Below are positions 31,800 through 61,601 of a stretch of DNA of 64,000 nt, piece after piece. Position 1 is the first letter of the stretch, and each line of letters starts with the position of its first letter. Source of the DNA: Phycisphaerales bacterium. Lineage in GTDB: Bacteria > Planctomycetota > Phycisphaerae > UBA1845. The translations under genes and the position numbers were made by a program. The notes beneath the pieces were generated by a model. It did not search any database. It was not told where the DNA came from and was given only the letters and a program-made list of their open reading frames with translations. Location of the stretch: the NCBI GenBank assembly GCA_003597935.1, contig QZJT01000039.1, forward strand, positions 8,336 through 72,335. Direction: 5' to 3'.

Positions 31800-32483
31800 C
31801 TAGGCGCAATCGCTGCGCTTGCCCTTCAGCTTGCACTTGCCGTCACCACCGCCCGGGCAGGCAATGGTCGTCCTGATCTTCTTGGCGCAATCCCCGACGT
31901 CCTCGCACTCCGCCTCGGTCCCGTAGTCGGACCCTTCCGCCGGGCAGTCGTCGCACTTCTTGGCTTTGCTCTTCTTGAGCGTGTAGACGCACGTCGGACC
32001 GCCCAGACCCTGAGAAGCCGGCGTGAAGTCCGCCGCAGTAGCGCCGCCGACGGTGCCGGCCAGCGTGCTGTAAAGCAGCGCCGGCTCATCGAGCGCGGCG
32101 GTAGACGTGCCGCTCCAGTTGAGCTTCTCGTCCTGGCTCTGCGGGATCCAGTACGCGAGCACGAAGCCGAGGGTCGGTCCGTTGTGACCGCCGCCGGACG
32201 AGGTGTAGGCGGTCCAGGGACCGATGGGCAGGTCGTTGGGGTCGCCGACGAAGTTCGTCAGCGGGCTGGGCTGGTTGTTGGCGATATCGCCGAAGATGAA
32301 CCATCGCCAACCCATGCCCTGAGTCCAACGATCGTCGACGGAGAGTTCGAACTCGTACTCGAACCGCCCTCCGCCGATGTCGACGTAGTCATACGCCAGG
32401 TGAATCTGCGGCTGGGCCATCGCCGACGGCACGATGAGCGCACCCAGTGCCAACACCACCGTCGCGATACTGATCTTCTTCAT
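31800..32483 (-). CDS. Secreted protein with CTD-A (paralog 1)
   Basis: Signal peptide MKKISIA...AMA, GAGGGG SD, 8-Cys Lys-rich C-terminal module. Confidence 0.85.
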   Translation of the reverse strand: MKKISIATVVLALGALIVPSAMAQPQIHLAYDYVDIGGGRFEYEFELSVDDRWTQGMGWRWFIFGDIANNQPSPLTNFVGDPNDLPIGPWTAYTSSGGGHNGPTLGFVLAYWIPQSQDEKLNWSGTSTAALDEPALLYSTLAGTVGGATAADFTPASQGLGGPTCVYTLKKSKAKKCDDCPAEGSDYGTEAECEDVGDCAKKIRTTIACPGGGDGKCKLKGKRSDCA

Positions 32484-33173
32484 TTCGATTTGCTCCCCTC
32501 AAAAAAAGGAACAATAAGCCGACGGACCGCGCGCTTACGCGACGCGCTCGACCGCCGAACCTGATTCCCAAGGACACCCCCGCTGCGCTCGCCTGTGCCG
32601 CCCGCGGGGGCACGTGTGAATGCTCTGCCGAGCGTCTGGTAAGTCTCCCACCCGAGTCGGGCAGAGCGATCCGGTAGCGGCCCGCTCCGCGTCTTGAACC
32701 CGGAGTGTAACGAATTCCACCGGCAGGTGCAACCCCTACGAAGTGTAACGAATCGTGAGGTTGCGAGACGTCGCCGGCGTGGCGTCGATCCGGGCGGACA
32801 ATCTTCGCCATCGCCTCCCCTGCGCGAAAGGCCCGCTCGGGCGCAGCGGGCGATACTCGGACCACCCTTGCGACATCCGCGGCACCCGTCGCGCTCCCCC
32901 TGCGGGGCATACGCCGAAGTGTCAGCGGGGCGGCGAAACCGGCGGCCGGCGCGCAATGGCACGGGCATCCTGCCGTGATCGCACCTGGCGCGGTGCAACC
33001 AACGGCCTGGAAGACCGTGCCACGCGCCCGGCTCGCCTCATGTGTCCCGAACCCAGCCACGCGCTGCCACGTCGCCGCGCTACCTCCGGCGTCGCCGGCA
33101 AACTCGACGCGCTTGGGCGCCGGCGGCCGGCAGAAGCCGCGGTTCACTGGCCGCACGCGGTGCAGGAGGCGAT

Positions 33174-33851
33174 TCAAGCACAGTCGCTGCGCTTGCCCTT
33201 CAGTTTGCAGGTGCCGTTGCCGCCGGGGCAGGCGATGATCGTCTTGATCTTCTTGGCGCAATCTCCGACGTCTTCACATTCCGTCTCGGTCTCGTAGTCG
33301 GACCCTTTCGCTGGGCAATCGTCGCACTTCTTGGGCTTGCTCTTCTTGATCGTGTAGACGCACGTCGGCCCGCCCAGGTCCTGAGTAGCCACGGCGAAGT
33401 CCGCCGGGGTGGCGCCGCCGACTGTGCCGGCGATGGTGCTGTAGAGCAGCGCCGGCTCATCCAGTGCGGCCGTGGAAGTTCCGCTCCAGTTGAGCTTTTC
33501 GTCCTGGCTCTGTGGGATCCAGTAGTCGAGGACGTAGTGCAGCGTGGGGCCGTTGTGACCGCCGCCGGACGAGCCGTAGGCCGTCCACGGTCCGATGGGC
33601 AGGTCGTTGGGGTCGCCGACGAAGCTCGTCAACGGGGACGGACAACTCCGGCAGTCGCCGAAGATGAACCAGCGCCAACCCATGCCCGGACTCCAACGGT
33701 CGTCCAGAGAGAGTTCGAACTCGTACTCGAATCGCCCTCCGCCGATGTCGACGTAGTCGTACGCCAGCAGAATCTGCGGCTGGGCCACCGCGGCCGGCAC
33801 GATGAGCGCACCCAGTGCCAGCACCACCATCGCGACACTGATCTTTCTCAT
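33174..33851 (-). CDS. Secreted protein with CTD-A (paralog 2, tandem duplicate of 31800-32483)
   Basis: Near-identical protein; start MRKISVA with AGGGGAG SD. Confidence 0.85.
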   Translation of the reverse strand: MRKISVAMVVLALGALIVPAAVAQPQILLAYDYVDIGGGRFEYEFELSLDDRWSPGMGWRWFIFGDCRSCPSPLTSFVGDPNDLPIGPWTAYGSSGGGHNGPTLHYVLDYWIPQSQDEKLNWSGTSTAALDEPALLYSTIAGTVGGATPADFAVATQDLGGPTCVYTIKKSKPKKCDDCPAKGSDYETETECEDVGDCAKKIKTIIACPGGNGTCKLKGKRSDCA

Positions 33852-34129
33852 TTCGTTACACTCCCCTGAACAGATGAGGAACGGCTCTGCGCAATCACGC
33901 GACGCGCTGGACCGTCGAGCTTGATTCCAAAGCAACGCTCCGGCGAGGCTCGCGCGCGCCACCTGCGGGGCACGTGTCGATGTACCGCCGTGCGTCTGAC
34001 AGGTCTCCCACTCCCCTGCGCCAAAGAGGCTAGCGGCGAGCCACTCCAGCGCTCGAACCAGTAGCATAACCGGATCGGCGGGCGAGTGCAAGCCCGCGCG
34101 TCAGCGGTCAGGGCGGCTGGGTGCGTGAC

Positions 34130-34385: not shown

Positions 34386-35144
34386 TCAGGCGCAGTCGCT
34401 GACCTTGCCCTTGATCTTGCAGGTGCCGTTGCCGCCGTCGGGGCACGGGATGATCGTCTTGATCTTCTTCTTGCAGTCCTTCACCGTCTCGCACTCCGCC
34501 TCGGAGGTGAATGCATCGCCGACGTTCGGACAGACGTCGCAGCGCTTGGCCTTGCTCTTCTTGATCTTGTAGATGCAGTTGTTGCCGCCGCGCTCGATGA
34601 TCTGCATGTCGTCCATGTCGATGAACGCGCCGCCGAAGAGCTTGCCGATCACGTCGATCTCGTGGAACGCAGCGCCGTCCGTCTGCCAGCCGTTCCAGTG
34701 CCACAGGCAGTCGCCCTCGCCGGTGGCGGCGATGGCGCGGCCGATCTCATTGCCGCCATCGTCGCGGAAGATCATCGTCGCGTCGTTGTTCTCGCCCAGG
34801 TTCGGCGCGTTGGAGCCGAAGAACCCGCCGAAGAGATCCTGCGGCGGATTCAGCGTATAGCGGTAAAAGCCGCCGGCGCTGCCCGTGAAGCGCACGCCGC
34901 CGTGGGGACGGATCACGCAGCGGAACGACCAGCCGCCGGTGATGTGGGCGCCGCTGTTACCCGGCGTACACAGGGTGCTGGCGCCGCCGAACACGCCGCC
35001 GATGATGCACGGATTGAATCCCGGAGAGTTTTGCGTCTCGAATCCTTCGGACACGTCGCCGGTGAACTCCGGCACCGGCGTCTGCGCGGAAGCGACCCCG
35101 GCCATGACCGCCATCAGAGCGATCGCCCACAGACCCTTTCTCAT
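34386..35144 (-). CDS. Secreted protein with CTD-A
   Basis: Signal peptide MRKGLWA...ASA, GGAGG SD, Gly/aromatic-rich passenger ending IDMDDM, then CTD-A. Confidence 0.85.
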   Translation of the reverse strand: MRKGLWAIALMAVMAGVASAQTPVPEFTGDVSEGFETQNSPGFNPCIIGGVFGGASTLCTPGNSGAHITGGWSFRCVIRPHGGVRFTGSAGGFYRYTLNPPQDLFGGFFGSNAPNLGENNDATMIFRDDGGNEIGRAIAATGEGDCLWHWNGWQTDGAAFHEIDVIGKLFGGAFIDMDDMQIIERGGNNCIYKIKKSKAKRCDVCPNVGDAFTSEAECETVKDCKKKIKTIIPCPDGGNGTCKIKGKVSDCA

Positions 35145-35454
35145 GACATTCCTCCCAAAAAAAGAACGGACGTTCGTCGCGCGACGTTCCCCAACGCCGC
35201 CGCGACAAAGTCGATTTCACTCGACTCATCCGGCGCCGGCCGCGGGCCGGAAGCCTGCGGGCGCACGCCTGGCAGAGATGAACTCGTACCCGGAGGCAGA
35301 ACCGCAACCACTACGGCGACCCCCTCGACGTGACGAGCCTCACTCGTGCGGGAGCGATTGTAGCAGAAACGACACGTCAGATAAAGCCCCCGCCGGCGGT
35401 TTTCTGCAGGAGAATCGGAATTCACCGACCATGCGGCGGAATCCCCAACGATAG

Positions 35455-35943: not shown

Positions 35944-36621
35944 CTACCCGCAGGCCGCCCGTTTGCCCTTCAGCTTGCAACTGCCGGGGCCGTCGGGACA
36001 CGCCGTCTGGGTCCTGATCTTCTTGCGACAATCCTCCACGTCTTCACACTCGGCGAAGGTGGGCAGGTTGTCGCCGGGCGCCGGGCAGCTTTCGCAGCCG
36101 CCCTTGGCCTTGCTCTTCCTGACGGTGTACTGGCATTTGCCGCCCGTGAAGAACTCGACAATGATCGTCTGGCTTGCACCGTTGCAGGTGGCGGTGTTGA
36201 CGCCGCCCCAGTTGGCGTTGCCGATACAGGGCCGCACGATGTACTGCGGATTGGGGCAAGCACAGATGCTGCCGGCGGCGCTGAGTTCGACGCCCCCGCC
36301 GCAGCCTCCGGTCATCCAGGTGCGCCCGTCGCACGGATAGCTGAGCCGCGCCTGGTTGTTGGTATTGATGTTGGCGGCGATCTGAGCGATGACGTCCGGG
36401 TCACCGCACGAGACGCCTTCCGGATCGTTGGATCCACGCAGCACGAGCAGGCGATAATCCTGTTCCACCAGCTCCGCCGCGAAAGCCCGCCATGCCGTAC
36501 ACTGGGCCGGCGAGGGCTGCCCCTGAACGAAGTCCTGTTCGAATACGATCTGTCCGTCGGCGGACGCGACCCACGTGGCGAGCACGGCCACTCCCACTCC
36601 ACACGCCTTTCTCGTCCTCAC
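35944..36621 (-). CDS. Secreted protein with Cys-containing passenger and CTD-A
   Basis: GTG start after AAGGGAG, signal peptide, passenger RPCIGNANWGGVNTATC, CTD-A. Confidence 0.82.
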   Translation of the reverse strand: MRTRKACGVGVAVLATWVASADGQIVFEQDFVQGQPSPAQCTAWRAFAAELVEQDYRLLVLRGSNDPEGVSCGDPDVIAQIAANINTNNQARLSYPCDGRTWMTGGCGGGVELSAAGSICACPNPQYIVRPCIGNANWGGVNTATCNGASQTIIVEFFTGGKCQYTVRKSKAKGGCESCPAPGDNLPTFAECEDVEDCRKKIRTQTACPDGPGSCKLKGKRAACG

Positions 36622-36956
36622 TTTGATCTCCCTTCGCCAGGATAGCACGGCGGTGCCCGGAGGCCGCTCTCCGAACCGGCGCGGCGCCGCGACAGGGGCG
36701 AAGTCTCTTCGCCGCGGTGGCCGCGCAGATGACCCCGTGGGCGATCGGCCCCGCTGAGCACGCTGCTCGCCGTGAACGACCCCTCCAAGCCCCGATGCGA
36801 CGCCGGGTAGAATAGCAGTTTTAACCCGCAAGTGCAACGGAATGGCGACGGCGCGGGCCGCCCGACTCGCCGGCTCGCGGCTGGCACGAAACGTGTAACA
36901 CTCATGCTGCAAGGAAAGCACGACCGCCGTCGGCGGCCTGCAGCAGGAGTCCGTCC

Positions 36957-38375
36957 ATGTTTCACGACGCTCGCGAGGCCCTTCGGTACATCGCCGGCCA
37001 TGACATCGCCATGGTGGACCTGAAGGTAGTCAGCATCGCCGGCCAGTGGCTGCACCTGACCATCCCCGCCGCCCAGTTCACCGAGAAGCACTTCGAGGAG
37101 GGCATCGGCTATGACGGTTCGGCGGGGTCCGGTTTCGCCAGCGTCGAAAGCGGCGACGTGGTGGCGCGGCCGGAGCCGGGCACTGCGTTCGTCGATCCCT
37201 TCTGGCGCGAGCCGACGCTGAGCTTCATCTGCGAGACCGTCGCGGCCGACAACCGCGCCCCGTTCGCCCACGACCCGCGGACGATCGCCCGGCGGGCGGT
37301 CGAGTGCCTGAAGCAGGCGCGCGTCGCCGACGCGGCGATGATGGCGCCGGAGTTCGAGTTCCACGTCTTCGACCGCCTCAGCGTGCGTAACGGGCCGTAT
37401 CAGACCCTGGTGGAGATCGAATCGCACGAAACGGCACCGGACGGGACGGTGGCGCGGATCGGGCCGCGGAAAGGCTACCTGCGCCTGCCGCCGTCCGATC
37501 AACTGCACAACCTGCGCTCCGAAATGGCCATCCTGCTTTCCGCGATGCACGTGCCGGTGACGTATCACCATCACGAGGTCGGCGCGCCCGGTCAGTGCGA
37601 GATCGAGACGGAGCTGGCCCCGCTGGTGACCGCCGCCGACCGGGCGATGCTCATCAAGTACGTAGTCAAGAACGTCGCCCGCAAACATGGCAAGATCGCC
37701 ACCTTCATGCCCAAGCCGATCTACAGCGAAGCGGGCAACGGGATGCACGTACACCAGAAGCTCGACCAGCAGGGCACGCCGCTGTTCTTCGACAAGACCG
37801 GCCGCAACTACGCCTCGCTGAGCGACCTGGCGCTGCAGTACGTCGGCGGGCTGCTCTCGCACGGGCGGGCGGTCACGGCGCTGACCAATCCCTCGACGAA
37901 CTCGTTCAAACGGCTGGTGGCGGGCTTCGAGGCGCCGGTCAACCTGTTCTTCTCCCTGGCGAACCGCTCGGCCGCCATCCGCGTGCCCAAGTACGCGGTG
38001 TCGCCGCATGCGAAGCGCATCGAGTACCGTCCCCCCGATTTTTCCGGCAACGTGTACCTCTCGCTGGCGGCGCTGCTCATGGCGGGCCTGGACGGGATCC
38101 TCCAACGCACCGACGTCAAGGAGCACGCTTTCGGCCCCTACGACGTGGACGTGGCCGCGCAGCCCAGCGAGTTCCGCGCCCGCGTCACGCCGCTGCCGCG
38201 AACGCTCTATGACGCGACGCTGGCGCTGGAGGCGGATCACGCCTTCCTGACCCGCGGCGAGGTCTTTCCCGAATCGTTCATTCACAACTGGATCGCCGCC
38301 CGGCGACGTGAGGAGTCCGCCGAAATCGCCTGCCGCCCGCACCCCTATGAGTATGAGTTGTACCTGGACGTGTGA
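36957..38375 (+). CDS. glnA: Type I glutamine synthetase
   Basis: PEFEF, HHHEVG..GQCEI, ATFMPKP, GNGMHVHQ, NRSAAIRVP, RIEYRPPD, RPHPYEY. Confidence 0.93.
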   Translation: MFHDAREALRYIAGHDIAMVDLKVVSIAGQWLHLTIPAAQFTEKHFEEGIGYDGSAGSGFASVESGDVVARPEPGTAFVDPFWREPTLSFICETVAADNRAPFAHDPRTIARRAVECLKQARVADAAMMAPEFEFHVFDRLSVRNGPYQTLVEIESHETAPDGTVARIGPRKGYLRLPPSDQLHNLRSEMAILLSAMHVPVTYHHHEVGAPGQCEIETELAPLVTAADRAMLIKYVVKNVARKHGKIATFMPKPIYSEAGNGMHVHQKLDQQGTPLFFDKTGRNYASLSDLALQYVGGLLSHGRAVTALTNPSTNSFKRLVAGFEAPVNLFFSLANRSAAIRVPKYAVSPHAKRIEYRPPDFSGNVYLSLAALLMAGLDGILQRTDVKEHAFGPYDVDVAAQPSEFRARVTPLPRTLYDATLALEADHAFLTRGEVFPESFIHNWIAARRREESAEIACRPHPYEYELYLDV

Positions 38376-38629: not shown

Positions 38630-39544
38630 TCAGCCGCACGAACGGCGCTTGCCCTTGATCTTGCACGTGCCGTTGCCGCCGCGCGGGCAGGCGATCGTCC
38701 CCTTCAGCTTCTTCTCGCACTCTTTCACATCCTCGCAGGCCGCATCGGAGCGGAATTCCGCTCCCTTCGGCGGACAGGTCTCGCACCCGCCCTTGGCCTT
38801 GGACTTCTTGATCAGGTAGTTGCAGCGGGCGCCGCCGCCGGCGAACGCCAGGCCGTCGTGCGAGCCCAGGCCGGTCTTGACGGTGGTGCGGGCGTACCCG
38901 TTGGCGATGTCGTACTTGAATAACCTGCCCTGCCAGTCGATCTGCCAGAGCACGTGCTGTTCCGGGTCGTACGCCAGGCCGCTGTTGTCCGTGAACTCGC
39001 CGTTGAACACCAGCGTCGCTTCGCCGGTGTTGCGGTCGATGCGGTAGAGGTCTCCGGCGCCGTCGGAGACGCCCAGCAGTTCGTCGTCGCGGGAGTTGTA
39101 GGCCAGGTTGCCCAGCCGCGGCACGATCGTGCCCCGCGGAGTGACGGCGCCCGTGCTTCGATTCACCGTGTACAACGGCTGGTTCGGGACGAATGCGCAC
39201 GCAAAGAGCACGTCGTTTTGCGAGTCGTAGCCCAGCCCGAACAGGTCGGTCACGCCGTGTGCGCCGACGGTGCCGGACTGGCCGGTGTTCGGATCGATCT
39301 TGTGCAGCGATCTGGTTCCACGGCCGTCAACCGCGTAAAGCGTATCCGTGCTGCTGTCCCACTCCAGACCGCCAAACTGAAATACCTCGTTGAGCGGGCC
39401 GACGTCGGTGAACTCCAGCGTGTTGGTGTCGATAGCCACGAGGATGTCGCCGGTCTCCCTCACGGTGTACAGGGTTCCGGCTTCGACGATGCCGGCGGAT
39501 GCCAGGACGCCGGCAATCAATCCGAGTACGATGGACTTTCTCAC
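38630..39544 (-). CDS. Secreted beta-propeller-like protein with CTD-A
   Basis: GTG start after AGGAGAGG, signal peptide, repeated GL-x-[YW]D...LY...LY-x-[IV]D-x-x-TG blades, CTD-A. Confidence 0.85.
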   Translation of the reverse strand: MRKSIVLGLIAGVLASAGIVEAGTLYTVRETGDILVAIDTNTLEFTDVGPLNEVFQFGGLEWDSSTDTLYAVDGRGTRSLHKIDPNTGQSGTVGAHGVTDLFGLGYDSQNDVLFACAFVPNQPLYTVNRSTGAVTPRGTIVPRLGNLAYNSRDDELLGVSDGAGDLYRIDRNTGEATLVFNGEFTDNSGLAYDPEQHVLWQIDWQGRLFKYDIANGYARTTVKTGLGSHDGLAFAGGGARCNYLIKKSKAKGGCETCPPKGAEFRSDAACEDVKECEKKLKGTIACPRGGNGTCKIKGKRRSCG

Positions 39545-39978
39545 GGTTTCCTCTCCTGCAAAAAAGGACTTGTCGGTTCGCAACGACCGCCCTCGACTCA
39601 CTCCGATGTAATCGCAACGGCCGAGGGACCAGACTCACCCCGGATTGTACCAAGGGAAGCGAGCCGACCCAAGCCGGTTGACGCGTCGACCCGTCGAGGT
39701 TGCGTCGATGGCCGCGTGACATCAGGATATGCCCATCCGTCAGGTTGGAGTCATCAGCTATGCCGATCGCTGGATTCGTGCGTCGCAGGCAGTCCGGTGG
39801 GCGTGGAAATACCGGACCGGTCAGGAGGGGGCGTGTTGTCGGCGGACTCGGTCTGGCCGGGAGGAGCGCTACGCTACGTCACCGTGCGCGATCCGCGGCC
39901 ACGTCGAAGCCGGAGAGTCCGCGCGGGCTGAAGCCCGCGGCTCGCGCGCAGCGCATCATCGCGCACGGTCATGTAGTG

Positions 39979-41472: not shown

Positions 41473-41733
41473 TTACGTCGCGGCGAGCCTCCCGCCCCAA
41501 ACGACCGTGATCGCCGACTGAGGACCAGCGAGCGAATCCGTGTGTTACCTGTCGCGGTCGCCAACGATCCGCGCCAGGTTCGGGTTTCGCCGGAGTTCTC
41601 AGGCCGCACGGCCGTCTACTTTCTTTTTTGCGATAGTTGCGATAGACTGAAATCCCGTTCAGGCCGCTGCGGTCGAAAACGGTTTCGACCACGCATCCGC
41701 GGTCTGGTCTTGCACTTGAAAGGAGGAAGAGGG

Positions 41734-44214
41734 ATGAGTATGCGCCTTGCGTTTGTGGGCACGTGTCTTTGGGCCGGTTTGAGCGCCGTCACGGCGGCGC
41801 AGGACATCGACCTGACGGATCCCGTCTACGAGGACATCGCGCCGATCCTCAACGATCTTCCGCAGGAAGACTGGACGGCGCCGGGGGGAGCCGATCAACA
41901 CTGGGAAGGCGGTTCCGTGCTGTCGTTCGCGCAGACCGTTCAGGCGGACGTCCGTTCCAACGGCGCTGCGCTGCAGTTCGCGGCGCTGACGCTCGATGAC
42001 GACGGGGCCGACAACCTGTTCATCAAGGTGCAGCAGCAGGACAGCTCCGGGAAGTTCTCCCACGTCGGGTTCTACCACGGCAACGGCGCCGGCGGGTGGC
42101 CTAACATGACCGGAGGGGCAGCGTTCGTAGCCCTCAGCGCCCAGTTCACTTTCGCCAAGATGACCGTCACGCACAACGGCGCCGGCACGGTCACGCTGAC
42201 CTTCTCCGAGATCGACGGCGGAAACGGCGTGCAGGTGTACGCCCGTGGCGGCTGGGTCAACCGTAACGGCCTGGGCATGGGATACGGCGGCTTCGCCGGG
42301 CACTCGAGCATCGACAACTGGGGCAACGCCGGCGGCCAGGTGTGCGACAACTTCGAGCGCCCCAACGGCGGCCTGGGCGGCAACTGGGTCACGGTGAACG
42401 GGACGACGTCCATTGTCGACAAGACCGCGCGCGGAACCAACACCGGGCGGGCCCGCTTCGCGGGCGCATGCGCCGGCCAGTCGACCACCATCGAGGCGGA
42501 CGTACGCGTCAACGGCACCGGCCTCCAGTACGCGGCCATGCTGCTGGACGGCGACAACAACAACAACCTGTTCGTCAAGGTGCAGCAACAGGGCGGCGGC
42601 GGCAAGTTCAACTACATCGGCTTCTATCAGGGCAACAACGACACCGACGGCTGGGGCGGCATGACCGGCGGCGTGCCCTTCCAGCTTCTCAACCAGCCGT
42701 TCAACTCGGCCCACATGGCGGTCATCCACAACGGCTTCGGCGACGTCACCATCGTCTTCTCGAAGATCGACGGCGGTCCGGGGCAGCAGATCTACTCGCG
42801 CGGCGGCTGGGCGCCGCTGGACGGCGACCGGATCGGGTTCGGCGGGTTCGCCGGGCTGACCATCATCGACAACTGGGGCAGTTCCTTCGTCTGCGACGAT
42901 TTCAACCGCCGCAACGGTCCGCTGGGCGCCAATTGGAACACCACCGACGGGTCGGCGTCGATCGTCAGCCTCGCGGCCCGCGGCGACAACCTCTCGCGTT
43001 CGTGGTTCATCGGCAACTGCGGCGCCTGCAACGACGACACCCCGCCGCTGGTCAGCATGACCGCGCCGGCGCCGGAATCCTGCGCCTGCAACGTTGTGCC
43101 CATCAACGGCAGCGTCAGCGACCCGGAGGGCTACGGGGGAGACGTGCTGGAATACCGCCGTACCGACCAGAACAACTGGACCCAGGCGGGCAGCAACAAC
43201 AACGAGCGTAACGGATTGCTCTACAACTGGAACACGGCCGGGCTGCCCACCGGGCTGTATTTCGTGCGCGTGGTGGCGGAAAACACCTGCGGACTCTCTT
43301 CGTCGGCGGTGTCGATCGTGTACGTCGATCATGATTCATTCTCCGGGCTGGAGATGCGGGCGCCGGGCGAGGGGCAGATCCTGGCGGGTACAGCCTGCTT
43401 CGACGGCACCGCCTGGGACCGCTGCTTCGACGAATACCAGGTGGAATACCAGCCCGGCGGCGGCGGCCAGTTCAACCCGGTCGATCCGAACAACCCGGTC
43501 TACAACACCACGGTCATCAACGATCCGCTGGCCCAGTGGAACACGGGAACGGTCGGCGACGGCAACTACCGCGTGCGGCTGACCGGCCTGGACATCTGCG
43601 GCAACACGGGCGCAATTCAGAAGAACGTGGTTGTGGACAATACCGCGCCGGTCTCCGTGATCTCCGCCCCCCAGGAGTGCGTGTGCCTGACCGGCCAGGT
43701 AACCGTCACCGGCACCGCCGACGACGCGAATCTCGCCGCCTGGTCGCTGCAGTACACCGGCGGCGACGCCCATGGCTGGGTCACCATCGCGTCCGGCAAT
43801 GCGCCTGTCATCAATGACACGCTCGGCGTCTGGAACACCGATGGCCTGCGGCCCTGTGCCTACACGCTGCGGCTGATCGTCACCGACAAAGCCAACGTGA
43901 ACTGCACCGGCAATACCCACCGCACGGATGATTACGTCTCGCTCAACGTCGGCGACTGCGGCAGCGGCTGCACGGGTAATGAGACCCTGACAGCCAAGTG
44001 CAAGAACAGCCGCAAGATCACGGCGACCGTTAAGAAGGGCTCGCCGGGAGCGGTGGTGACCTTCGAGGTCGACGGCGGACAAACGAAGCAGGAGACGATC
44101 AACAACAAGGGCAAGGCCAAGGCCAGTTGGCCCGGCAACGCGCCCGGCCAGCACGGCGTCAGCGCGGAACTCGCCTGCGGAGACGTGCTGAACAAGAACG
44201 TGACCTGCCCGTAG
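41734..44214 (+). CDS. Large secreted repeat protein (duplicated N-terminal module, three Ig-like domains) ending in CTD-B
   Basis: AGGAGG SD and signal peptide. Internal duplication (NLFIKVQQQ/NLFVKVQQQ; DNFERPNG/DDFNRRNG) and three WNT...G-x-Y domains. Confidence 0.85.
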   Translation: MSMRLAFVGTCLWAGLSAVTAAQDIDLTDPVYEDIAPILNDLPQEDWTAPGGADQHWEGGSVLSFAQTVQADVRSNGAALQFAALTLDDDGADNLFIKVQQQDSSGKFSHVGFYHGNGAGGWPNMTGGAAFVALSAQFTFAKMTVTHNGAGTVTLTFSEIDGGNGVQVYARGGWVNRNGLGMGYGGFAGHSSIDNWGNAGGQVCDNFERPNGGLGGNWVTVNGTTSIVDKTARGTNTGRARFAGACAGQSTTIEADVRVNGTGLQYAAMLLDGDNNNNLFVKVQQQGGGGKFNYIGFYQGNNDTDGWGGMTGGVPFQLLNQPFNSAHMAVIHNGFGDVTIVFSKIDGGPGQQIYSRGGWAPLDGDRIGFGGFAGLTIIDNWGSSFVCDDFNRRNGPLGANWNTTDGSASIVSLAARGDNLSRSWFIGNCGACNDDTPPLVSMTAPAPESCACNVVPINGSVSDPEGYGGDVLEYRRTDQNNWTQAGSNNNERNGLLYNWNTAGLPTGLYFVRVVAENTCGLSSSAVSIVYVDHDSFSGLEMRAPGEGQILAGTACFDGTAWDRCFDEYQVEYQPGGGGQFNPVDPNNPVYNTTVINDPLAQWNTGTVGDGNYRVRLTGLDICGNTGAIQKNVVVDNTAPVSVISAPQECVCLTGQVTVTGTADDANLAAWSLQYTGGDAHGWVTIASGNAPVINDTLGVWNTDGLRPCAYTLRLIVTDKANVNCTGNTHRTDDYVSLNVGDCGSGCTGNETLTAKCKNSRKITATVKKGSPGAVVTFEVDGGQTKQETINNKGKAKASWPGNAPGQHGVSAELACGDVLNKNVTCP

Positions 44215-44250
44215 GACGAGCGGCCGCGCGGTCTTACTGAGTCCCCGATC

Positions 44251-44287
44251 AAGCCCCGAATGGCCCTGCCGCCCGGGGCTCTCTTCT
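44251..44287 (+). terminator. Possible intrinsic terminator
   Basis: AGCCCCG...CGGGGCT stem followed by CTCTTCT. Confidence 0.45.
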
Positions 44288-44579
44288 AACTCCAGACGGG
44301 TGAGCAAGCATACGCACAACGGCACCCCAGCATCGGCCGCACGTGTGGAACGGGAGGCTGTAACTCATTCTAACGACCTCACTTACATGCGTACGCGGCG
44401 GTCCGGACGGAATGAATGTTCGGTATGTGTTCAGCCCATCGGCCGGAACCACGGAATCCACGGGATCGCGAGCTTGAAAAACACTTGCAAGCGGCTCACC
44501 TGTGCGATAACATTGGCCATGAGGCGGTGCCGGAGCCGCCGATTCGCTGCTCACGGTCTTTAGCGGAGGATACCAACTC

Positions 44580-45020
44580 ATGTTACGCTTTTTCAATTGC
44601 TCTGCGGGGTGGCGCATCGTGCTCGCCTCACTTTGCGGCTTGGCACTTGCGTCGCCTTCGCACGCGCCCGCCCAGGAGTGCGGTACCAACGAGTACTGTG
44701 TCTGTCCGGTGATTTCGTACTGCGGCGGGTGGCACGTCTACCCGTGTAAGTGCGTCGAGACCGCAACAGGAAAGGCGTGCGATCTTTGGCAGGCTACAAT
44801 CAGCGGCCCGTGGGGGGATGAAGCGTGCGAGGTAGGGCACTGCGCCGCGTTGGATCTCTGTCCTTGCGCTGTGGAGCGAGTGTGCCTGGATCGCGATTGG
44901 GAACCATTTGGGTCCAATTGTCTGGTGGACTCGCACTGCATTGAAGATGACATCTTTGATTATCTATATCAGACTTGCTGGGGGGACTTGGGTCCTGAGT
45001 GTATATGGGTGGAGCCGTAA
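44580..45020 (+). CDS. Small secreted Cys-rich protein (16 Cys in the mature part)
   Basis: GGAGG SD, signal peptide ending HAPA, acidic Cys-rich mature domain, visibly lower GC. Confidence 0.7.
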   Translation: MLRFFNCSAGWRIVLASLCGLALASPSHAPAQECGTNEYCVCPVISYCGGWHVYPCKCVETATGKACDLWQATISGPWGDEACEVGHCAALDLCPCAVERVCLDRDWEPFGSNCLVDSHCIEDDIFDYLYQTCWGDLGPECIWVEP

Positions 45021-45271
45021 GCATGGCGCCCGGCCGTCTCAGGAGATGTTCACCAGCGGCGCGGGCGGTTTGATGCGGTGCCGTCCAGGGGCGTGACCGC
45101 TCGCTGGCTGTCGCACGCGCCTCACGATTGCGCGCGGAGATTCCTCGCCCGCACGCCTCGGCACCGTTGAAACCAAGGTGTGGCTTGGGATTGTCCATCC
45201 ACGCAGGTGCGAGCACCTTTTCGCGAAGGCGTTCCTTCGCCGGAGGAGTTTCGTCCTGAAGGAGGCAGAGC

Positions 45272-46684
45272 ATGGTGGGATGTTGCATGCTAGGGATCCT
45301 CGGCGGGTACGCCTGTACCTGGATCCCTTCGGGGACATCGCCTCAGGTCAGCCAGTTGGGGAAACCGGAGGCGCTCGTCCTAGCAGAATCGCAAAGGCTG
45401 AGTTTTCAGACTGGCGAGATTCAGTGGAAGAGTGAAAAACCCGACGGCTATCAGCGCCACTTCTCCGCGCGGTTTTGCCCGACCAGCAGGTTGCGAATTG
45501 AGTGCGGAGACTCGACGGGAGCAGTGGTTCCTCACCGCGCCGGTGAACCCTACTCGTACTCAGAGTTTCGGCAGCTCGTTGCGACGGATCGTGAATGGAC
45601 GTACATTGAGGACTCGCCCTCTGCTGAGGCCACCCCAATTGAACTCGCGACCGGTGTAGCCGATGTCCTCGCTCTTGGCTTTCTGCCCTACTACACGTCG
45701 GGAACTGCCATGCGTTTCGAGAACTATTGCCTCGGGGAAGCGTTGTCATACAGTGTTGCGGACGATGCTGGCCTGAAGGTCGTCACCGCACACTTGCAGT
45801 CAGGCGGCAAACAGGTCTGGTGGTTGGACGATACTGTCGGCGGGAACCCGGTTCGGTGTGCCTTGATTTCGGAGGACAAGGTTGTCGCGGAATCGCAGAC
45901 GACCTACAGAGAGTACGCAGGCGGGCGGTTCGTTGACTCGATAAGCTACTACGACTCTACGCGTAACCTCCGGCGCCGCGATATCGTGCTGGATGCATCA
46001 TTTGATCAGCCTTGGCATTCCCAGCAGCTTGGCCCGAAGGAGATCGGCGTGCTCGAAGGGATGATGGTTGGCGGCCGCGATCTTGTCGGCGTTAGGCCGG
46101 CGAGATGGGATGGCGCCAAGATCATCACCCATGAAATGTACACAGCCCGAGTCGAAGCGGGTTTGCTCGATCCATCGCCATATCTGATCATGCTCGAACG
46201 TGTGCGAGAGCAGGGCGGTCCGGGCGTACTACCCAACCAACCACTCGCTGTTGATCTCGTCATAGTAGCACGGGAACCGGGCCTGTGGGAGCGCTACACT
46301 CGGACGTTTGTTCTTACCCACGCGCTCGATACGGAGCGTGCCAGGCAGGCTTGGTGCTTGCTGCGACAGTGCCAGGGACTGGCCTACGAGATTCTTAAGA
46401 CGCAACGGCCGCGGCTGGACGAGGTCGAGAGAGTTCGTACCGACCTCCGCCGCGAGATTGAGGCCGAAGACACGGAAGTGCGACGGCGCGAGCTTAGCGA
46501 GCGCAAGCTCGAGCGTTTAAGCGAAGACGAAAAGATGTTGCTGGCGCCGGTCAGACGGTTGTTCGAAGAATGTCTGCAGCGGAAGCTCTTCGCCCTCCTG
46601 ACGCCCGAGGAGCGCGCCCGCAGTCCCATGGTGACGTCCGCGTCGGAGCCGCCGCCGCGACAGGAGGCGGAGCGCACTCCGTAA
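45272..46684 (+). CDS. Hypothetical exported protein with C-terminal helical/coiled-coil domain
   Basis: AAGGAGG SD, 470-aa ORF with atypical codon usage and a charged helical C-terminus. Confidence 0.7.
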   Translation: MVGCCMLGILGGYACTWIPSGTSPQVSQLGKPEALVLAESQRLSFQTGEIQWKSEKPDGYQRHFSARFCPTSRLRIECGDSTGAVVPHRAGEPYSYSEFRQLVATDREWTYIEDSPSAEATPIELATGVADVLALGFLPYYTSGTAMRFENYCLGEALSYSVADDAGLKVVTAHLQSGGKQVWWLDDTVGGNPVRCALISEDKVVAESQTTYREYAGGRFVDSISYYDSTRNLRRRDIVLDASFDQPWHSQQLGPKEIGVLEGMMVGGRDLVGVRPARWDGAKIITHEMYTARVEAGLLDPSPYLIMLERVREQGGPGVLPNQPLAVDLVIVAREPGLWERYTRTFVLTHALDTERARQAWCLLRQCQGLAYEILKTQRPRLDEVERVRTDLRREIEAEDTEVRRRELSERKLERLSEDEKMLLAPVRRLFEECLQRKLFALLTPEERARSPMVTSASEPPPRQEAERTP

Positions 46685-46753
46685 GAAGGCCACTTTGGCC
46701 GACCCGGACTTCGGGCGGTACGAGGCCACGCGCGTGCGCCTTGGCCCTGCCGT

Positions 46754-47203
46754 GGAGGCATCTACACTATCAATCTGGGGAAGCGCGCTGCGTGGCTCGT
46801 GGCCAGCCCCGGCGGCGTCAACGACTGCGACATCGCCTACGACGACGCCCAGGTGTACTGGGCGATGGACTGGAGCGGGAACCTCTTCAGGTACGACGCC
46901 CAGTGGGGCCGCACCACCGTCAGCACCGGCCATGGATCGGCGGGCGCTTGCGAGTACGTCGGGCTGGGCGGCGCCTGCGGCGAGAAGGCGGAGCTGATGG
47001 TCAAGTGCAAGTCGAACGGCGCCACGGTCGTCGCCAAGCTCAAGAAGGCCAATCCCAACGTGCCGGTCGTCTTCGTCCTCGACAACGAGCTGCGCCGGCC
47101 CGGCCAGACCAACAACAAGGGCAAGGCCAAGGTGAAGTTCACCGGCCTGGACGAGGGCCGCCACGAAGTGCGCGTGTGCAACCTGGTTGAAGAGTGCGGG
47201 TGA
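46754..47203 (+). pseudogene. 5'-truncated remnant: last beta-propeller blades + CTD-B
   Basis: IAYDDAQVYWAMDWSGNLFRYD...RTTVSTGHGS aligns with the end of the 38630-39544 passenger. No signal peptide or SD. Confidence 0.68.
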
Positions 47204-47564: not shown

Positions 47565-48659
47565 GTGCAGAAGACGATGCTCGAGTCACACGTGGACGAC
47601 GCTACCGCGGTCGATTCCGGAGTCGCGTTCCAGGACTACGCCGCCCGTTCGCGCCTCTGCCCGCTGTTTCTCCTTGGCGACGCCGCCACGTTACTCCGTG
47701 AGTTTCCGCCGCGCGCGGTGGACTGTGCCATGACCAGCCCCCCCTATTGGGGGAAGCGGGAATACGCGGGAGGCGGTATTGGCATGGAGGCGGATTGGCG
47801 CGACTACGTGCAGGCCCTGCTCCGCGTTTTCGGTGAACTCAAGCGCGTTCTCAAGCCGACCGGATCGTTCTGGCTGAACATCGGGGACAGCTACGTAAAC
47901 AAGAATCTTGCGGGGCTGCCCTGGCGCGTGGCGCTTGCCATGACCGACGAACAGGGCTGGATTCTACGCAACTGCGTCATCTGGAATAAGGTCAAGGGCG
48001 GACCTGACAACGCCGTCGACAAGCTCCGCAATGTGCACGAGCCGGTTTTCCATTTCGTCAAATCGCCCAAGGGCTACTACTACGACGTGGACGCGATTCG
48101 GACAAACCCGAAGAAGGCCCAGGTAGTCAACGGCGCCGTGGTGTCCGCGACGGGCGTGAGCGGAGTTCGCTACCGGCGGCAGATCGAACTCTCAACGGCC
48201 CTTTCGGACGAGGAGAAGCAGGCTGCGTTCGAGGCATTGGAAGCCATCCTCGACCAGGTTCGTGCGGGGGAGTTGGCGGACTTCCGGATGATCATTCGCG
48301 GGCAGCAACGGACGACCCACTCGGACTCGTCAGCGGTGTCCGGACGCGCGAGAGACCTGGCTGTGAAAGGCTTCTACTTTTTGAAATACCACCCCAATGG
48401 CTCCAAGCCGAGCGACGTCTGGGACATCATTCCCGAGGACACGCAGAAGCGAAAGACGCACTTCGCGCCCTATCCGGAGGATCTGTGCAAGTTGCCCATC
48501 CTCGCCACGTGCCCGCCGGGCGGAATCGTGCTGGATCCGTTCTGCGGTACAGGGACGACGAACTACGTTGCCCATTGTCTGGGGCGGAAGTCCGTCGGCA
48601 TCGACGTTTCCGCGGAGTACCTTGAGGCCGCTCGTGACAGGTGTAACTTTCTGATATGA
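47565..48659 (+). CDS. Site-specific DNA amino-methyltransferase, beta class (SPPY, probably m4C)
   Basis: Motif IV TSPPY at the N-terminus; HFAPYP and motif I LDPFCGTGTT at the C-terminus. Confidence 0.92.
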   Translation: MQKTMLESHVDDATAVDSGVAFQDYAARSRLCPLFLLGDAATLLREFPPRAVDCAMTSPPYWGKREYAGGGIGMEADWRDYVQALLRVFGELKRVLKPTGSFWLNIGDSYVNKNLAGLPWRVALAMTDEQGWILRNCVIWNKVKGGPDNAVDKLRNVHEPVFHFVKSPKGYYYDVDAIRTNPKKAQVVNGAVVSATGVSGVRYRRQIELSTALSDEEKQAAFEALEAILDQVRAGELADFRMIIRGQQRTTHSDSSAVSGRARDLAVKGFYFLKYHPNGSKPSDVWDIIPEDTQKRKTHFAPYPEDLCKLPILATCPPGGIVLDPFCGTGTTNYVAHCLGRKSVGIDVSAEYLEAARDRCNFLI

Positions 48660-49504
48660 GCGAAGTCCTCGAACTTTTCGGCCATTCTACCGACCGCATG
48701 GGCGCACGCTACTGGACTCGCATCGTCGCCGATCAGCACTGCCCATACTTGAACCGGCGATGTATCAAGGTCCGAAAGAGCGAGCCGGATGTTTCTATCG
48801 GTACGTGTACGGTAAACCATGGCCAGGAACGGCGAGCCATCATGATCTGTCCGTTCCGATTCCTGGAGCGCCGTCAGATCTTCGTTGACGCGCTGCATCT
48901 GCTCACCCTGCACGAACCTGGGAATGAGCTTCACGTCGTGCCTGAGGTTACCATTCCCGGCGGAAGTGTGGATTACTTCCTAGTATCGGCTCGAAACGGG
49001 AAACCGCTCGACTTCGTCGGGATCGAACTCCAAACGCTCGACACGACCGGGACGGTCTGGCCCGCCCGCCAGCGCTTTCTGCAATCGGTGAAAGCAAAGG
49101 CCCCGCTTTCCGCATCCGCAGCCGATAGGCCCTTCGGCATGAACTGGAAGATGACGGCCAAGACAAGCCTGCTGCAACTCCACCACGAGGTGGAGACATT
49201 CGAGCATCTGTCCAAGCGGCTGGTGTTGGTCTTGCAGGACTGCCTTCTGGAGTACATGCAGGGCGAGTTTACGCTGGGACACCTGTCCGATCCGAAGGTT
49301 GGGCACGCCATGCACGTCCACGCGTACAAGTTGGATATGACATCGGAGGGTTTACGTTTGGGGCTTGTCAAGCGCTTGAGCACAGACGCCGCCGGTGTCG
49401 CCACGGTACTCGGATTGCAAGCGCAGGCCAGGGTTGAACTCGAATCCATCCTGGCGGCCATCGAAGAACGTCTGTCGGCCCAGACGCTGTGGTCGCCGGT
49501 CTGA
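48656..49504 (+). CDS. NotI-family type II restriction endonuclease
   Basis: N-terminal four-Cys motif CPY..RCIK..GTC..ICPFRF, catalytic-like VD...IELQ, ATGA overlap with the methyltransferase. Confidence 0.8.
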   Translation: MSEVLELFGHSTDRMGARYWTRIVADQHCPYLNRRCIKVRKSEPDVSIGTCTVNHGQERRAIMICPFRFLERRQIFVDALHLLTLHEPGNELHVVPEVTIPGGSVDYFLVSARNGKPLDFVGIELQTLDTTGTVWPARQRFLQSVKAKAPLSASAADRPFGMNWKMTAKTSLLQLHHEVETFEHLSKRLVLVLQDCLLEYMQGEFTLGHLSDPKVGHAMHVHAYKLDMTSEGLRLGLVKRLSTDAAGVATVLGLQAQARVELESILAAIEERLSAQTLWSPV

Positions 49505-49580
49505 GCAGTGGATCGGCGGCGGACGTACCAAGCCTGGCGGAGGCTGACCGCGGAACAGTCGGTCTGGTCCCCGCGGCAGC

Positions 49581-50783
49581 TTACAGAACCAACTTCGCGA
49601 ACTTCCGCTTGCCGCGCTGGATCACGTCGCCGGGCTTGACGGCGACCGGCGTGACCGCATCGTCGATCGTCTCGCCGTTCAGTCGGACGCCTTTTTCGCT
49701 CACCAGCCGGCGGGCTTCGCTGCGGGACTGGGCGAAACCGCAGGCGACGATGAGGTCCACGGGTGAGGCGGTGCCGTTTTCGACGCAGGAGCTGACGTCG
49801 ATCTCCGGGACGTCGTCGGGCAGCCCGCCCCCCCCGCCGCCGAAGACGCGGCTGAACTCTTGCGCCGCGGCTTCCGCCTCGGCCGCACCGTGGTACTGCG
49901 TCACGATCGTCCGGGCGAGCGTCTCCTTCGCCTGCCGCGGATGGGTCCGGGACGCGTCCGTCAGCTTGGCGATTCGTTCGGCCGGCAGATCCGTCAGCAG
50001 CGTGAACCAGTTGGCCATCAGCGCGTCTGGGATGCTCATCACCTTGCCGAACATCTCGCCGGGCGGGTCGGTGACGGCCACGTAATTGCCCAGCGACTTG
50101 CTCATCTTCTGCGCGCCGTCGGTGCCGATCAGGATCGGCATGACCAGCACGATCTGCGGCAGTTGGCCGGCGCTGCGCTGCAGGTCGCGGCCGCACAGGT
50201 TGTTGAACGTCTGGTCCGTGCCGCCCAGCTCCACGTCGGACTGGATCATCACGCTGTCGTACGCCTGCATCAGCGGATAGAGCAGTTCGTGCAGGTAAAT
50301 CTCCTTGCCCTCCGCCTGCCGCCTGGCGAACGTGTCGCGCTCCAACATGCGGGCGGTCGTCATCCGGCTCATCAGCTTCACCACGTCGGCGAAACTCAGC
50401 TTGCTGAGCCATTCGCTGTTGTGGCGGACCTCGACTTTGTCCGGCGACAGGTCGAGCACCATGCCGGCCTGATCGAAGTAGGTGCGGGCGTTGGTTTCGA
50501 TGTCGTCGGCCGAGAGCACCGGCCGCGTCTTCGACCGCCCCGTCGGGTCGCCGATCATGGCGGTGTAGTCGCCGATGATCAGCACCGCCTTGTGCCCGGC
50601 GTCCTGGAACTGCCGCAGCTTGCGCAGCACCACCGTGTGGCCGAGCGTCAGATCCGGCGCAGTCGGGTCCATGCCGAGCTTGACCCGCAGCGGACGCCCG
50701 AGCCTGAGCCGCTCCGTCAACTCTTCAGCAGAGTAGATCGAGTCCGCGCCGCGGAACAGTATCTCGTGGGACGTGGGCGTCAT
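49581..50783 (-). CDS. tyrS: Tyrosine--tRNA ligase
   Basis: KLGMDPTAPDLTLGH, IGDPTG, YPLMQAYD, ELGGTDQTFN, KMSKSLGN, C-terminal S4 domain (GKRKF). Confidence 0.97.
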   Translation of the reverse strand: MTPTSHEILFRGADSIYSAEELTERLRLGRPLRVKLGMDPTAPDLTLGHTVVLRKLRQFQDAGHKAVLIIGDYTAMIGDPTGRSKTRPVLSADDIETNARTYFDQAGMVLDLSPDKVEVRHNSEWLSKLSFADVVKLMSRMTTARMLERDTFARRQAEGKEIYLHELLYPLMQAYDSVMIQSDVELGGTDQTFNNLCGRDLQRSAGQLPQIVLVMPILIGTDGAQKMSKSLGNYVAVTDPPGEMFGKVMSIPDALMANWFTLLTDLPAERIAKLTDASRTHPRQAKETLARTIVTQYHGAAEAEAAAQEFSRVFGGGGGGLPDDVPEIDVSSCVENGTASPVDLIVACGFAQSRSEARRLVSEKGVRLNGETIDDAVTPVAVKPGDVIQRGKRKFAKLVL

Positions 50784-60464: not shown

Positions 60465-61601
60465 CTAGCCGCAGCTATCGCGCTTGCCCTTGATCTTCTT
60501 GCAGAAGCCGTCGCCGCCGTCCGGGCAGTCGATCTTCTTGACCTTGATCTTCTTGGCGCAGTCGCCCACTTCCTCGCAGGCCTCGCCGGAGTCGTAGAGA
60601 TCGCCCTTGGCCGGGCAACTGTCGCACTTCTTCGCCTTGGAGTCCTTCTTCAGGGCGTACTGGCAGGCATCGCCGCCGCCACCGGTTCCGATCAGGACGA
60701 ACGGCCGGTCGCTCGGGGCGCCGGAGCACCCGTCGACGTTCGCCGCCCAGGCGCCGCTGGACACCGTGAAGAACCGGCTGTTGTCAGTCTGCGGATTGCC
60801 CGGGGCGGAAACGGGCAGCCACGGGCCGGAAGCGCCCTGTCCGCGGGTGGCGAACTCGATCCAGTAGGTACCGGCCTCGAGCGGGTCGAGCCAGCTCATG
60901 TCGAAGGACACGGTCTTGATCACCCGGGCCTGGTCCAGCGGGGTGGCCGGGTTCACGCGGTTGGCGTGCGAGTACTCGCTGGTGCCCATCAGGCGGTTGG
61001 TGATCATATCGCCGCCGATGATGTTGCCGCCCCCGCCGGGGACGCCATCGTAGATCTGGATGTAGATCTCGGTGATGAGCTGCTCGCGCGTCGCGCCGGT
61101 CTGGTAGATCCAGGTGATCCCCTGCGCGATGTCCCACGTCTGGCCCTCCGGCACGACGAAGTCGTCGGCCTGGTGGAAGGCCGTCACCAGCGTGTTGTTG
61201 CCGAACGTGCAGTTGGGAGGCTCAAAGGCGGAGATGTCCTCGCCGTTGATGCCCAGGCCGCCCTGCACGAAGATGTCGTCGGCGCCGTTGTTGACGAGCA
61301 CGTCATTCTCGCCCGTCCCGCCGTTGCAGTACCGCTTGTTCCCGTTCGGGTCCTCCTCGCAGGCGGCGGCCACGTGCGTGCAGCCGGCCTGCACGCAGGA
61401 CACGCCGCCTTCGGCCTGCGCGAACACGCTGCACACGCAGTCGGCGGCGACGCTTGGCCCACCCGGAGTCGGCGCCGGCGAACTGAGCGTCGGCATCGCC
61501 TCGTCGTGGAGCAGGTCATCCGCGTACCGCGGCTGATCGGCCGACACCACGCCGGCCAGCGCCAGGCACGCCGCGACCGCACAACACTTCCTTACCAACA
61601 T
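60465..61601 (-). CDS. Secreted protein with CTD-A
   Basis: GGGAGG SD, signal peptide, passenger with ADDF...W and L-x-AGTYW motifs, CTD-A. Confidence 0.85.
   Translation of the reverse strand: MLVRKCCAVAACLALAGVVSADQPRYADDLLHDEAMPTLSSPAPTPGGPSVAADCVCSVFAQAEGGVSCVQAGCTHVAAACEEDPNGNKRYCNGGTGENDVLVNNGADDIFVQGGLGINGEDISAFEPPNCTFGNNTLVTAFHQADDFVVPEGQTWDIAQGITWIYQTGATREQLITEIYIQIYDGVPGGGGNIIGGDMITNRLMGTSEYSHANRVNPATPLDQARVIKTVSFDMSWLDPLEAGTYWIEFATRGQGASGPWLPVSAPGNPQTDNSRFFTVSSGAWAANVDGCSGAPSDRPFVLIGTGGGGDACQYALKKDSKAKKCDSCPAKGDLYDSGEACEEVGDCAKKIKVKKIDCPDGGDGFCKKIKGKRDSCG

Follow-up and report, generated by a model that had tools for sequence, protein, structure and literature searches.

The feature at positions 46754–47203 of the window (the whole stretch of 64,000 nucleotides that was analysed) is, judging from its sequence, a recently 5′-truncated pseudogene of a Sec-exported DUF4394-type propeller protein with the C-terminal module CTD-B. 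A second module, CTD-A, ends a related propeller protein encoded at 38630–39601 (−). We consider it probable that the feature is such a truncated CTD-B propeller gene, and that both tails are lineage-specific modules which have been joined to many passengers and rarely swapped at the hinge. Two undescribed modules behave like exchangeable cargo tags on approximately 190 secreted proteins, and CTD-A has no recognisable fold.

The truncated gene and its intact ortholog

The stop-to-stop frame 46685–47203 (+) has 172 codons, is open throughout, and matches the initial annotation from 46754. The translations quoted there for the remnant and for the gene at 38630 agree with ours. The remnant has 149 aa, consisting of 74 residues of propeller and a 75-residue Ig-like tail. 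It reads GGIYTINLGKRAAWLV... to ...EYVGLGGAC, then GEKAELMVKCKSNG...VCNLVEECG and a stop. By translation, the passenger part (46754–46975, +) contains approximately the 74 last residues of a DUF4394/DUF6923-type β-propeller, which is the last blade or two. The tail (46976–47203, +) has 75 codons plus TGA, scored 74.5 bits with the local CTD-B HMM, and is of the short subtype ending in VCxLExxCG. Its predicted fold is a 7-strand Ig/FN3-like sandwich with four conserved Cys (AF2 pLDDT 93.8).

The remnant begins partway through a propeller blade and lacks both a start codon in context and a signal peptide or leader-like segment. A narrow family HMM covered the remnant passenger at positions 113–188 of 188. 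The 74 residues alone gave no DUF4394 or DUF6923 match in Pfam, as expected for a fragment. The remnant was placed in the DUF4394/DUF6923 family because it is 74% identical to an ortholog that passes the Pfam cut-offs. This ortholog was found in G001, a genome of the same genus; among 41 related genomes and the genome under study (G000), matches to the remnant were limited to these two. The search for intact orthologs in related genomes, proposed in the initial annotation, thus yielded a syntenic gene of 310 aa (G001:C111, L002) with a signal peptide, a DUF4394/DUF6923 propeller and, again, CTD-B. Its Pfam scores were 46.8 bits for DUF4394 and 29.4 bits for DUF6923, both above the gathering cut-offs, and the 74% identity extends across all 149 residues of the remnant. 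The dN/dS between the two was 0.225 over 149 codons (dS 0.79), and that of the neighbouring gene was 0.18. The break appears to be recent because the dN/dS is 0.225 and there is no internal stop.

The same two observations could also be read as the mark of a live gene. A 134-aa frame starting at GTG 46799 may encode a cytoplasmic or leaderless CTD-B protein; it is called by gene callers, and the Atlas entry starts at residue 16. However, such a protein would start mid propeller blade without a signal-peptide-like segment, whereas genuine stand-alone CTD-B ORFs all have their own leader, and a low dN/dS is expected when a break is recent relative to a dS of 0.79. We regard a live small gene as improbable and treat the remnant as a pseudogene.

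The locus and its synteny with G001

The gene upstream of the remnant (41542–44214, +) encodes an 890-aa secreted protein ending in CTD-B (tail approximately 43969–44211), and in G001 the ortholog of this gene immediately precedes the intact gene. Between this gene and the remnant, G001 has 928 bp, compared with 2,593 bp of lower-GC DNA in G000. The GC content of the lower-GC stretch is 0.59–0.62, compared with 0.65–0.70 nearby. The initial annotation had noticed that the 5′ part of the remnant is missing beside a lower-GC cassette. The synteny with G001 and the GC profile show an insertion (44215–46753, +), which replaced the intergenic region and approximately 534 bp of 5′ coding sequence. 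In the blastn comparison of the two genomes, identity was 81% at the 3′-end of the 890-aa gene (43591–44215; L002 3–627), 79% in the remnant (46808–47201), and 82% in tyrS (49580–50140), inside which synteny resumes at 49580.

The insert has no homology to the syntenic G001 stretch and is present as a single copy in the G000 assembly. It contains a Cys-rich ORF of 146 aa with a signal-peptide-like start (44580–45020) and an ORF of 470 aa (45272–46684), neither of which matched a Pfam, NCBIfam or PADLOC family. Of 41 related genomes, 15 have members of the family of the 470-aa ORF, all at loci other than the syntenic one. The insert flanks carry no terminal repeats of the kind typical of a transposon. 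Downstream of the remnant, a type II restriction-modification pair (N6_N4 methylase and NotI-like endonuclease; 47565–49504, +) was annotated by Pfam (PF01555, 2e-48; PF12183, 3.6e-5) and PADLOC (MTase_II, REase_II). The pair is absent at the syntenic G001 locus, where a small unrelated gene stands. Its GC content is also lower, and the insert lies on the other side of the remnant. Because the insert and the restriction-modification pair flank the remnant, the locus appears to be a hot spot of gene flux.

In a MAG of 155 contigs, a fall in GC across 44.2–46.7 kb could also point to a chimeric assembly join near 46750. Against such a join, the two outer flanks are syntenic with G001 and keep its order and orientation, the remnant sits between two separate indels, and the insert occurs once in the assembly. 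We consider a chimeric join very improbable and an insertion the better reading.

Two side observations concern the remnant frame. The 470-aa insert ORF and the remnant frame 46685–47203 are in the same frame with a single TAA (46682–46684) between them; this has a chance of 1 in 3, and no sign of readthrough was seen. A perfect 23-nt direct repeat (44100–44122 and 47110–47132) lies within the NNKGKAK motif of the two neighbouring CTD-B tails, those of the 890-aa protein and the remnant, which are otherwise only approximately 35% identical as proteins. The repeat may be explained by strong codon bias on a conserved motif, and such tracts could act as seeds for recombination between tails.

Properties of the tail modules

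HMMs of CTD-A and CTD-B were built here by iteration on six-frame ORFs, and all counts refer to the six-frame ORFs of a 77%-complete, 4.3-Mb, 155-contig MAG. CTD-A was found in 62 ORFs and CTD-B in 126. The tail was terminal (at most 20 residues from the stop) in 60/62 and 124/126 of them, respectively. One tail per protein is the rule and no ORF had both A and B, while a few divergent internal or tandem copies of CTD-B were seen (C11_2_1891, C48_5456, C49_27910). When the C-terminal 90 residues of 12,246 ORFs (at least 150 aa) were clustered independently of these HMMs, CTD-B (132 members) and CTD-A (60 members) emerged as the two largest C-terminal families.

CTD-A has 64 residues, eight invariant Cys and a high Lys content, and four strands were predicted (AF2 pLDDT 89.3). 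It had no match among solved folds (Foldseek best E 1.6, VIA best Z 3.4), and no Pfam or NCBIfam family matched it in the gene at 38630 or, for Pfam, in 30 A-tailed ORFs. CTD-B has 70–85 residues, with a KGKAK motif and four Cys that are invariant. Its matches to known folds are generic; an FN3 domain aligned with a VIA Z of 8.2 and an rmsd of 2.1 over 69 aa. For neither tail did the Atlas feature search yield a usable match. The median net charge is +7 for CTD-A and +5 for CTD-B, and the tail pI is approximately 9.2, compared with approximately 4.6 for the passengers. According to the structure models, CTD-A and CTD-B are predicted to be autonomous, confidently folded, basic, Cys-stapled all-β modules with unrelated folds.

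Gly occupies positions −4 and −3 ahead of CTD-A in 32 and 30 of 59 ORFs, and ahead of CTD-B in 35 and 47 of approximately 122. A crude signal-peptide rule detected a leader in 50/60 A-tailed and 107/124 B-tailed ORFs. The median length upstream of the tail is 284 aa for A versus 435 aa for B. In the window, HMM matches marked four CTD-A genes in a row (stop-to-stop frames 31803–32498, 33177–34100, 34389–35216 and 35947–37029, all −; C2_40138, C2_41512, C2_42724 and C2_44282), a further CTD-A gene at 60468–61652 (−; C2_68803_69987), and a further CTD-B gene at 14972–16810 (−; C2_23307_25145). Mini-proteins made of a signal peptide and one CTD-B alone were also observed (C13:47321–47740 and 48166–48516, L062; C38:20488–20847; C22:37779–38297), two of which immediately follow an A-tailed gene.

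In addition to CTD-A and CTD-B, 34 ORFs form a third, dockerin-like C-terminal family, in which the motif D-x-D-x-D-G-x-V-D-L is duplicated. It scored 18.7 bits against PF00404, below the cut-off of 22.9, in two of the six proteins scanned. Two ORFs with this tail and four B-tailed ORFs have a common passenger (39% identity over 226 aa, E 1e-50). Examples of the family are C84:56–829 and C1:120231–121541, together with four giant tandem genes at C50:5057–25020. Another ORF (G000:C3:61623–64118, L096) combines the dockerin-like tail with an MtrC/MtrF-like multihaem cytochrome domain (PF22113, 28.6 bits, just below the cut-off).

Passenger homology and exchange of the tails

The CTD-A paralog of the remnant has a signal peptide and a DUF4394/DUF6923 propeller (38825–39601, −), identified by Pfam and collinear with the remnant's ortholog. 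Its CTD-A tail (38630–38824, −) consists of 64 residues plus the stop, with 8 Cys and many Lys, and scored 88.2 bits with the local HMM. The gene at 38630–39601 (−) reads GDLYRIDRNTGEATLV...GLAFAGGGARC, then NYLIKKSKAKGGC... Its Pfam scores were 40.1 bits for DUF4394 (PF14339, cut-off 29.6) and 30.1 for DUF6923 (PF21959, cut-off 27).

The significance of the pairwise alignment, a check that the initial annotation had proposed, was assessed with the remnant and with its ortholog. BLASTP aligned the 149-aa remnant to the 38630 gene with 37% identity over 92 aa (E 1e-12 for the pair), and the few columns beyond the first Cys are K-rich noise. The intact ortholog gave 36% identity over 220 aa (E 2e-40) in one collinear block, which spans residues 21–236 against 42–260 and ends at GLGGAC/GGGARC, the Gly-Gly hinge. 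The match stops just ahead of the first tail cysteine, in agreement with the earlier observation that similarity ends at the GG linker. When the 74-aa passenger was compared by phmmer with 47,004 six-frame ORFs (at least 50 aa), it had two non-self matches, C86_10673 (E 1.4e-8) and the 38630 gene (E 6.6e-8), and both are CTD-A proteins. By these alignments, the similarity between the remnant and the 38630 passenger is most plausibly family-level homology.

A maximum-likelihood tree of the narrow DUF4394-type family was built from 15 rows, 10 from G000 and 5 from G001, comprising all members at the set thresholds except L020, a G001 copy broken by a TAG. The B-tailed remnant and its ortholog group with three A-tailed proteins with a support of 97/96. 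The tree requires at least three tail changes, of which well-supported branches force at least two. Trees in which a single branch separates all eight A-tailed rows from the others were rejected by the AU test (p 0.00046, log-likelihood difference 25.2). A single tail change in this family is rejected because of this p value.

The exchange is also seen in other passengers. A total of 182 passengers of at least 40 aa were clustered with cut-offs of E < 1e-10 and 50% coverage. The coverage filter was preferred to single linkage at E 1e-6, which merged unrelated propellers into a cluster of 51 members. In the passenger-by-tail matrix that the initial annotation had called for, 24 families had several members, of which 5 had A only, 13 had B only, and 6 had both tails. 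At stricter cut-offs, 8 of 27 families were A-only, 15 B-only and 4 mixed. The strongest mixed pairs include the WD40 proteins C133 (A) and C57 (B) with 52% identity over 593 aa, C140 (A) and C81 (B) with 48% over 260 aa, and C11 and C64 (A) against C30 (B) with 55% and 51%. Four A-tailed proteins are 40–49% identical to the 890-aa B-tailed protein of the window. In all six aligned A/B pairs, homology ends before the first tail Cys, from a few to approximately 15 residues upstream of it. Where the shared domain abuts the tail, the BLAST alignment ends 1 to 7 residues before the tail, and this distance is 1–5 residues for C133/C57 and C140/C81. The 890-aa protein and the first copy in C30 are multidomain B proteins that have the shared domain at an internal position. 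The claim that tails are swapped at the linker is borne out by these pairs and by the six mixed families. Judged from alignments and trees, CTD-A and CTD-B have evidently been interchangeable in evolution.

The concern that the remnant and the 38630 gene share only generic β-propeller blades, with nothing swapped, is legitimate because a loosely iterated passenger HMM drifted into WD40 and other propellers (68 ORFs), showing that blade-level similarity is widespread in this genome; a narrow model was used instead. This concern is answered by the collinear, near full-length alignment at E 2e-40. A generic resemblance would also hardly restrict the 74-aa passenger to two family members among 47,004 ORFs, group the remnant with CTD-A proteins at 97/96, or place both tails on five other, unrelated passenger families. 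The initial annotation had named generic blade similarity, together with the lack of any family bearing both tails, as the outcome that would overturn its claim, and we found the opposite on both counts. We consider generic blade similarity extremely improbable, and homology of the passengers with exchange of the tail is the preferred reading.

Exchange of the tail is rare in comparison with its retention. The nearest paralog has the same tail in 95/106 cases. All five ortholog pairs that were compared between G000 and G001 keep their tail (remnant/L002, C97/L007, C64/L017, C86/L012, C140/G001:C14), and the pair C140/G001:C14 is 69% identical through the tail. All observed swaps are older than the split of the two species. 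Mixed A/B adjacencies of tail genes numbered 9, compared with 16.9 expected by label shuffling (P 0.0075). The 600 nt downstream of each tail gene contained no relic of a displaced tail, and the sole strong match there is a separate ORF with its own leader. The tail fidelity fits duplication of genes with their tail and occasional replacement.

A leader-bearing WD40 family was also observed (C31, C57, C67, C79, C93, C110, C125, C16, C17 and C133). It has 13 members of up to approximately 830 aa, 12 with CTD-B and one with CTD-A. This is an unusually large number of exported WD40 propellers.

Distribution of the tails

CTD-A was found in 3 of 251 genomes sampled from the class, namely G000 and two genomes of one other genus in the same family. 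In the second genus it is a divergent variant with 3–4 copies per genome. CTD-B was found in the same 3 genomes and in one genome of a neighbouring family. Among 351 genomes of the phylum, CTD-B occurred in G000 with only one further, marginal match. G001, of the same genus as G000, has many copies of both tails. Approximately 20 further genomes of the family were searched and have neither tail. Both tails are thus jointly confined to a few Phycisphaeraceae genera, apart from rare CTD-B matches outside.

Larger collections were searched as well. The CTD-A profile matched 128 representatives at E ≤ 0.001 among 1.84 billion, nearly all of them at the C-terminus. A search with the CTD-A region returned 27 proteins, none with a name in the source, and a locus scan with a single CTD-A protein returned 5 loci, all in one MAG (uncultured Phycisphaeraceae bacterium). 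One word-index search for CTD-B retrieved the entry of the query alone, and another gave at least 11 matches among 8,000 scored candidates; neither result says much about distribution. A single query for the DUF4394-type passenger had no match in G138, G207 or G039.

The CTD-A-like tail of the second genus (G138, G207; L064, L065, L067, L068) is longer, more Cys-rich and less Lys-rich, and its passengers are SGL/NHL-like propellers. Among the G000 copies, the divergent C143_3509 and C36_29626 are similar to it. This longer Cys-rich variant may be the older form.

Possible role of the tails

We propose that CTD-B, CTD-A and the dockerin-like module form a small set that was joined to varied acidic secreted passengers through a short Gly-rich hinge. 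The genes would mostly duplicate with the tail attached, and now and then recombination at the hinge would exchange one tail for another. The tails may serve as address or anchor modules, a view to which we give about even odds. A tail might hold its acidic cargo on an anionic polymer of the cell surface or envelope by charge, or it might be read by an export or attachment machine. A tail swap would then re-address the passenger.

The initial annotation also held that both modules probably play an equivalent role, and this part of its claim has indirect support only. The two tails have the same slot, hinge, basic charge and narrow range, and from these features CTD-A and CTD-B may be functionally equivalent. 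However, they have unrelated folds, and 95/106 paralogs and 5/5 orthologs keep their tail. Free functional equivalence is disfavoured because of the unrelated folds, the tail fidelity, the shorter A-tailed ORFs and the fewer mixed adjacencies. This pattern agrees equally well with distinct and with equivalent addresses for the two tails.

The main alternative denies the tails any part in sorting or anchoring and takes them for ordinary accessory domains, one an Ig-like spacer and the other a small disulfide knot. They would stabilise the protein or bind a ligand (glycan, mineral), the shuffling would be plain domain accretion, and the terminal place would be incidental. The generic Ig/FN3 fold of CTD-B agrees with this alternative, as do its few divergent internal or tandem copies and the stand-alone ORFs of a signal peptide plus CTD-B, which suit a binding domain no less than a pure export signal. 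The machinery of a known system was also not found. SprA_N (PF14349) had no match in G000, a 77% complete genome, in a search that also matched none of 14 control genomes, and Por_Secre_tail (PF18962) had no match in six-frame G000 in a search without a positive control. Ordinary Ig or CBM domains, however, vary in position and number, whereas 184/188 tails here lie within 20 residues of the stop, with one tail per protein and never A together with B. Accessory domains would also not be expected to be the two largest C-terminal families of a genome, to have in common a strong basic charge on acidic passengers, or to occupy a slot that a dockerin-like module also uses. We consider the accessory-domain explanation unlikely; if it is right, the case is an ordinary one of lineage-specific domain shuffling.

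Within the address or anchor view, a stronger version can be formulated. A few Phycisphaeraceae genera might possess an undescribed planctomycete system for surface display or outer-membrane export, which would handle approximately 220 proteins in this MAG and use CTD-A, CTD-B and the dockerin-like tail as alternative address tags. Each tag would be recognised by a separate receptor or attachment partner, CTD-A would have arisen for this purpose as a new fold, and cargo would be re-addressed by tag swaps at the Gly-Gly hinge. We put this version forward tentatively, as a speculation that is rather doubtful in its full extent.

Because a given passenger can carry either tail A or tail B, nature provides matched pairs of propeller, WD40 and other passengers, on which localisation or binding assays could directly test what the tails do. 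Phylogenetic profiling also has a sharp target, because both tails are confined to the same few genera.

Comparison with known systems

To our knowledge, no dedicated cargo tag is known for Phycisphaerae, and the placement of proteins on or beyond the planctomycete envelope is poorly understood. Exchange of C-terminal modules between secreted proteins is in itself a known phenomenon. A full-text literature search, taken at the level of titles and abstract openings, returned nothing on the CTD-A or CTD-B modules or on a Phycisphaerae cargo tag. In that literature, neither the modules nor their joint confinement to a few Phycisphaeraceae genera is described.

Tripartite sorting tags consist of a motif, a transmembrane helix and a basic cluster. 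According to the available parts of the reports, LPXTG, PEP-CTERM, GlyGly-CTERM and MYXO-CTERM belong to the many-to-one C-terminal tags, which mark dozens of secreted proteins in a genome, and an invariant Cys is present in some tags of this kind (PMC3237569, PMC1569441, PMC11980579). CTD-A and CTD-B, in contrast, are folded β domains of 64–85 residues with no hydrophobic helix. The three tail-bearing proteins searched against NCBIfam matched no tripartite sorting-signal family, and no hydrophobic helix was seen in the tail alignments.

CTD-B resembles Big_3_5 (PF16640) and Big_1 (PF02369) in its Ig-like fold, with an Atlas TM of 0.77 to Big_3_5 clusters. Its Pfam scores were below the cut-offs, with 21 versus 34.9 bits for Big_1 (remnant) and 25.1 versus 35.5 for Big_3_5 (890-aa protein). 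Unlike these domains, CTD-B has four conserved Cys and a KGKAK motif, and it is used once and last, not in internal tandem arrays.

Dockerins (PF00404) of the cellulosome type are interchangeable C-terminal assembly or anchor modules on many enzymes. The likeness lies in the dockerin-like tail family of G000, of which one passenger family also occurs with CTD-B. CTD-A and CTD-B themselves differ from dockerins, as they are all-β and have no PF00404 match.

For the T9SS of Bacteroidota, the available parts of the reports describe type A and type B CTDs that have one translocon in common and route cargo to different attachment partners (PMC9143113, PMC12618676). No T9SS CTD model (PF18962/TIGR04183, TIGR04131) matched the three tail-bearing proteins at E ≤ 0.1 in Pfam or NCBIfam, and none in Pfam matched 32 B-tailed ORFs at E ≤ 1e-5 or 30 A-tailed ORFs at E ≤ 0.001. 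Membership of the tails in the T9SS CTD family is not supported. Both tails also differ from T9SS CTDs in their conserved cysteines, their strong positive charge and their phylum, Planctomycetota, and CTD-A is a four-strand, 8-Cys module without a counterpart there. Like the tails described here, however, T9SS CTDs are globular modules of approximately 70–100 residues at the extreme C-terminus of many unrelated, Sec-exported passengers, and two different CTD classes occur in one organism. CTD-B is closest to them, as a 7-strand β-sandwich at the extreme C-terminus of signal-peptide-bearing cargo. By this resemblance, the T9SS with its type A and type B CTDs appears to be the closest working analogy for the tails.
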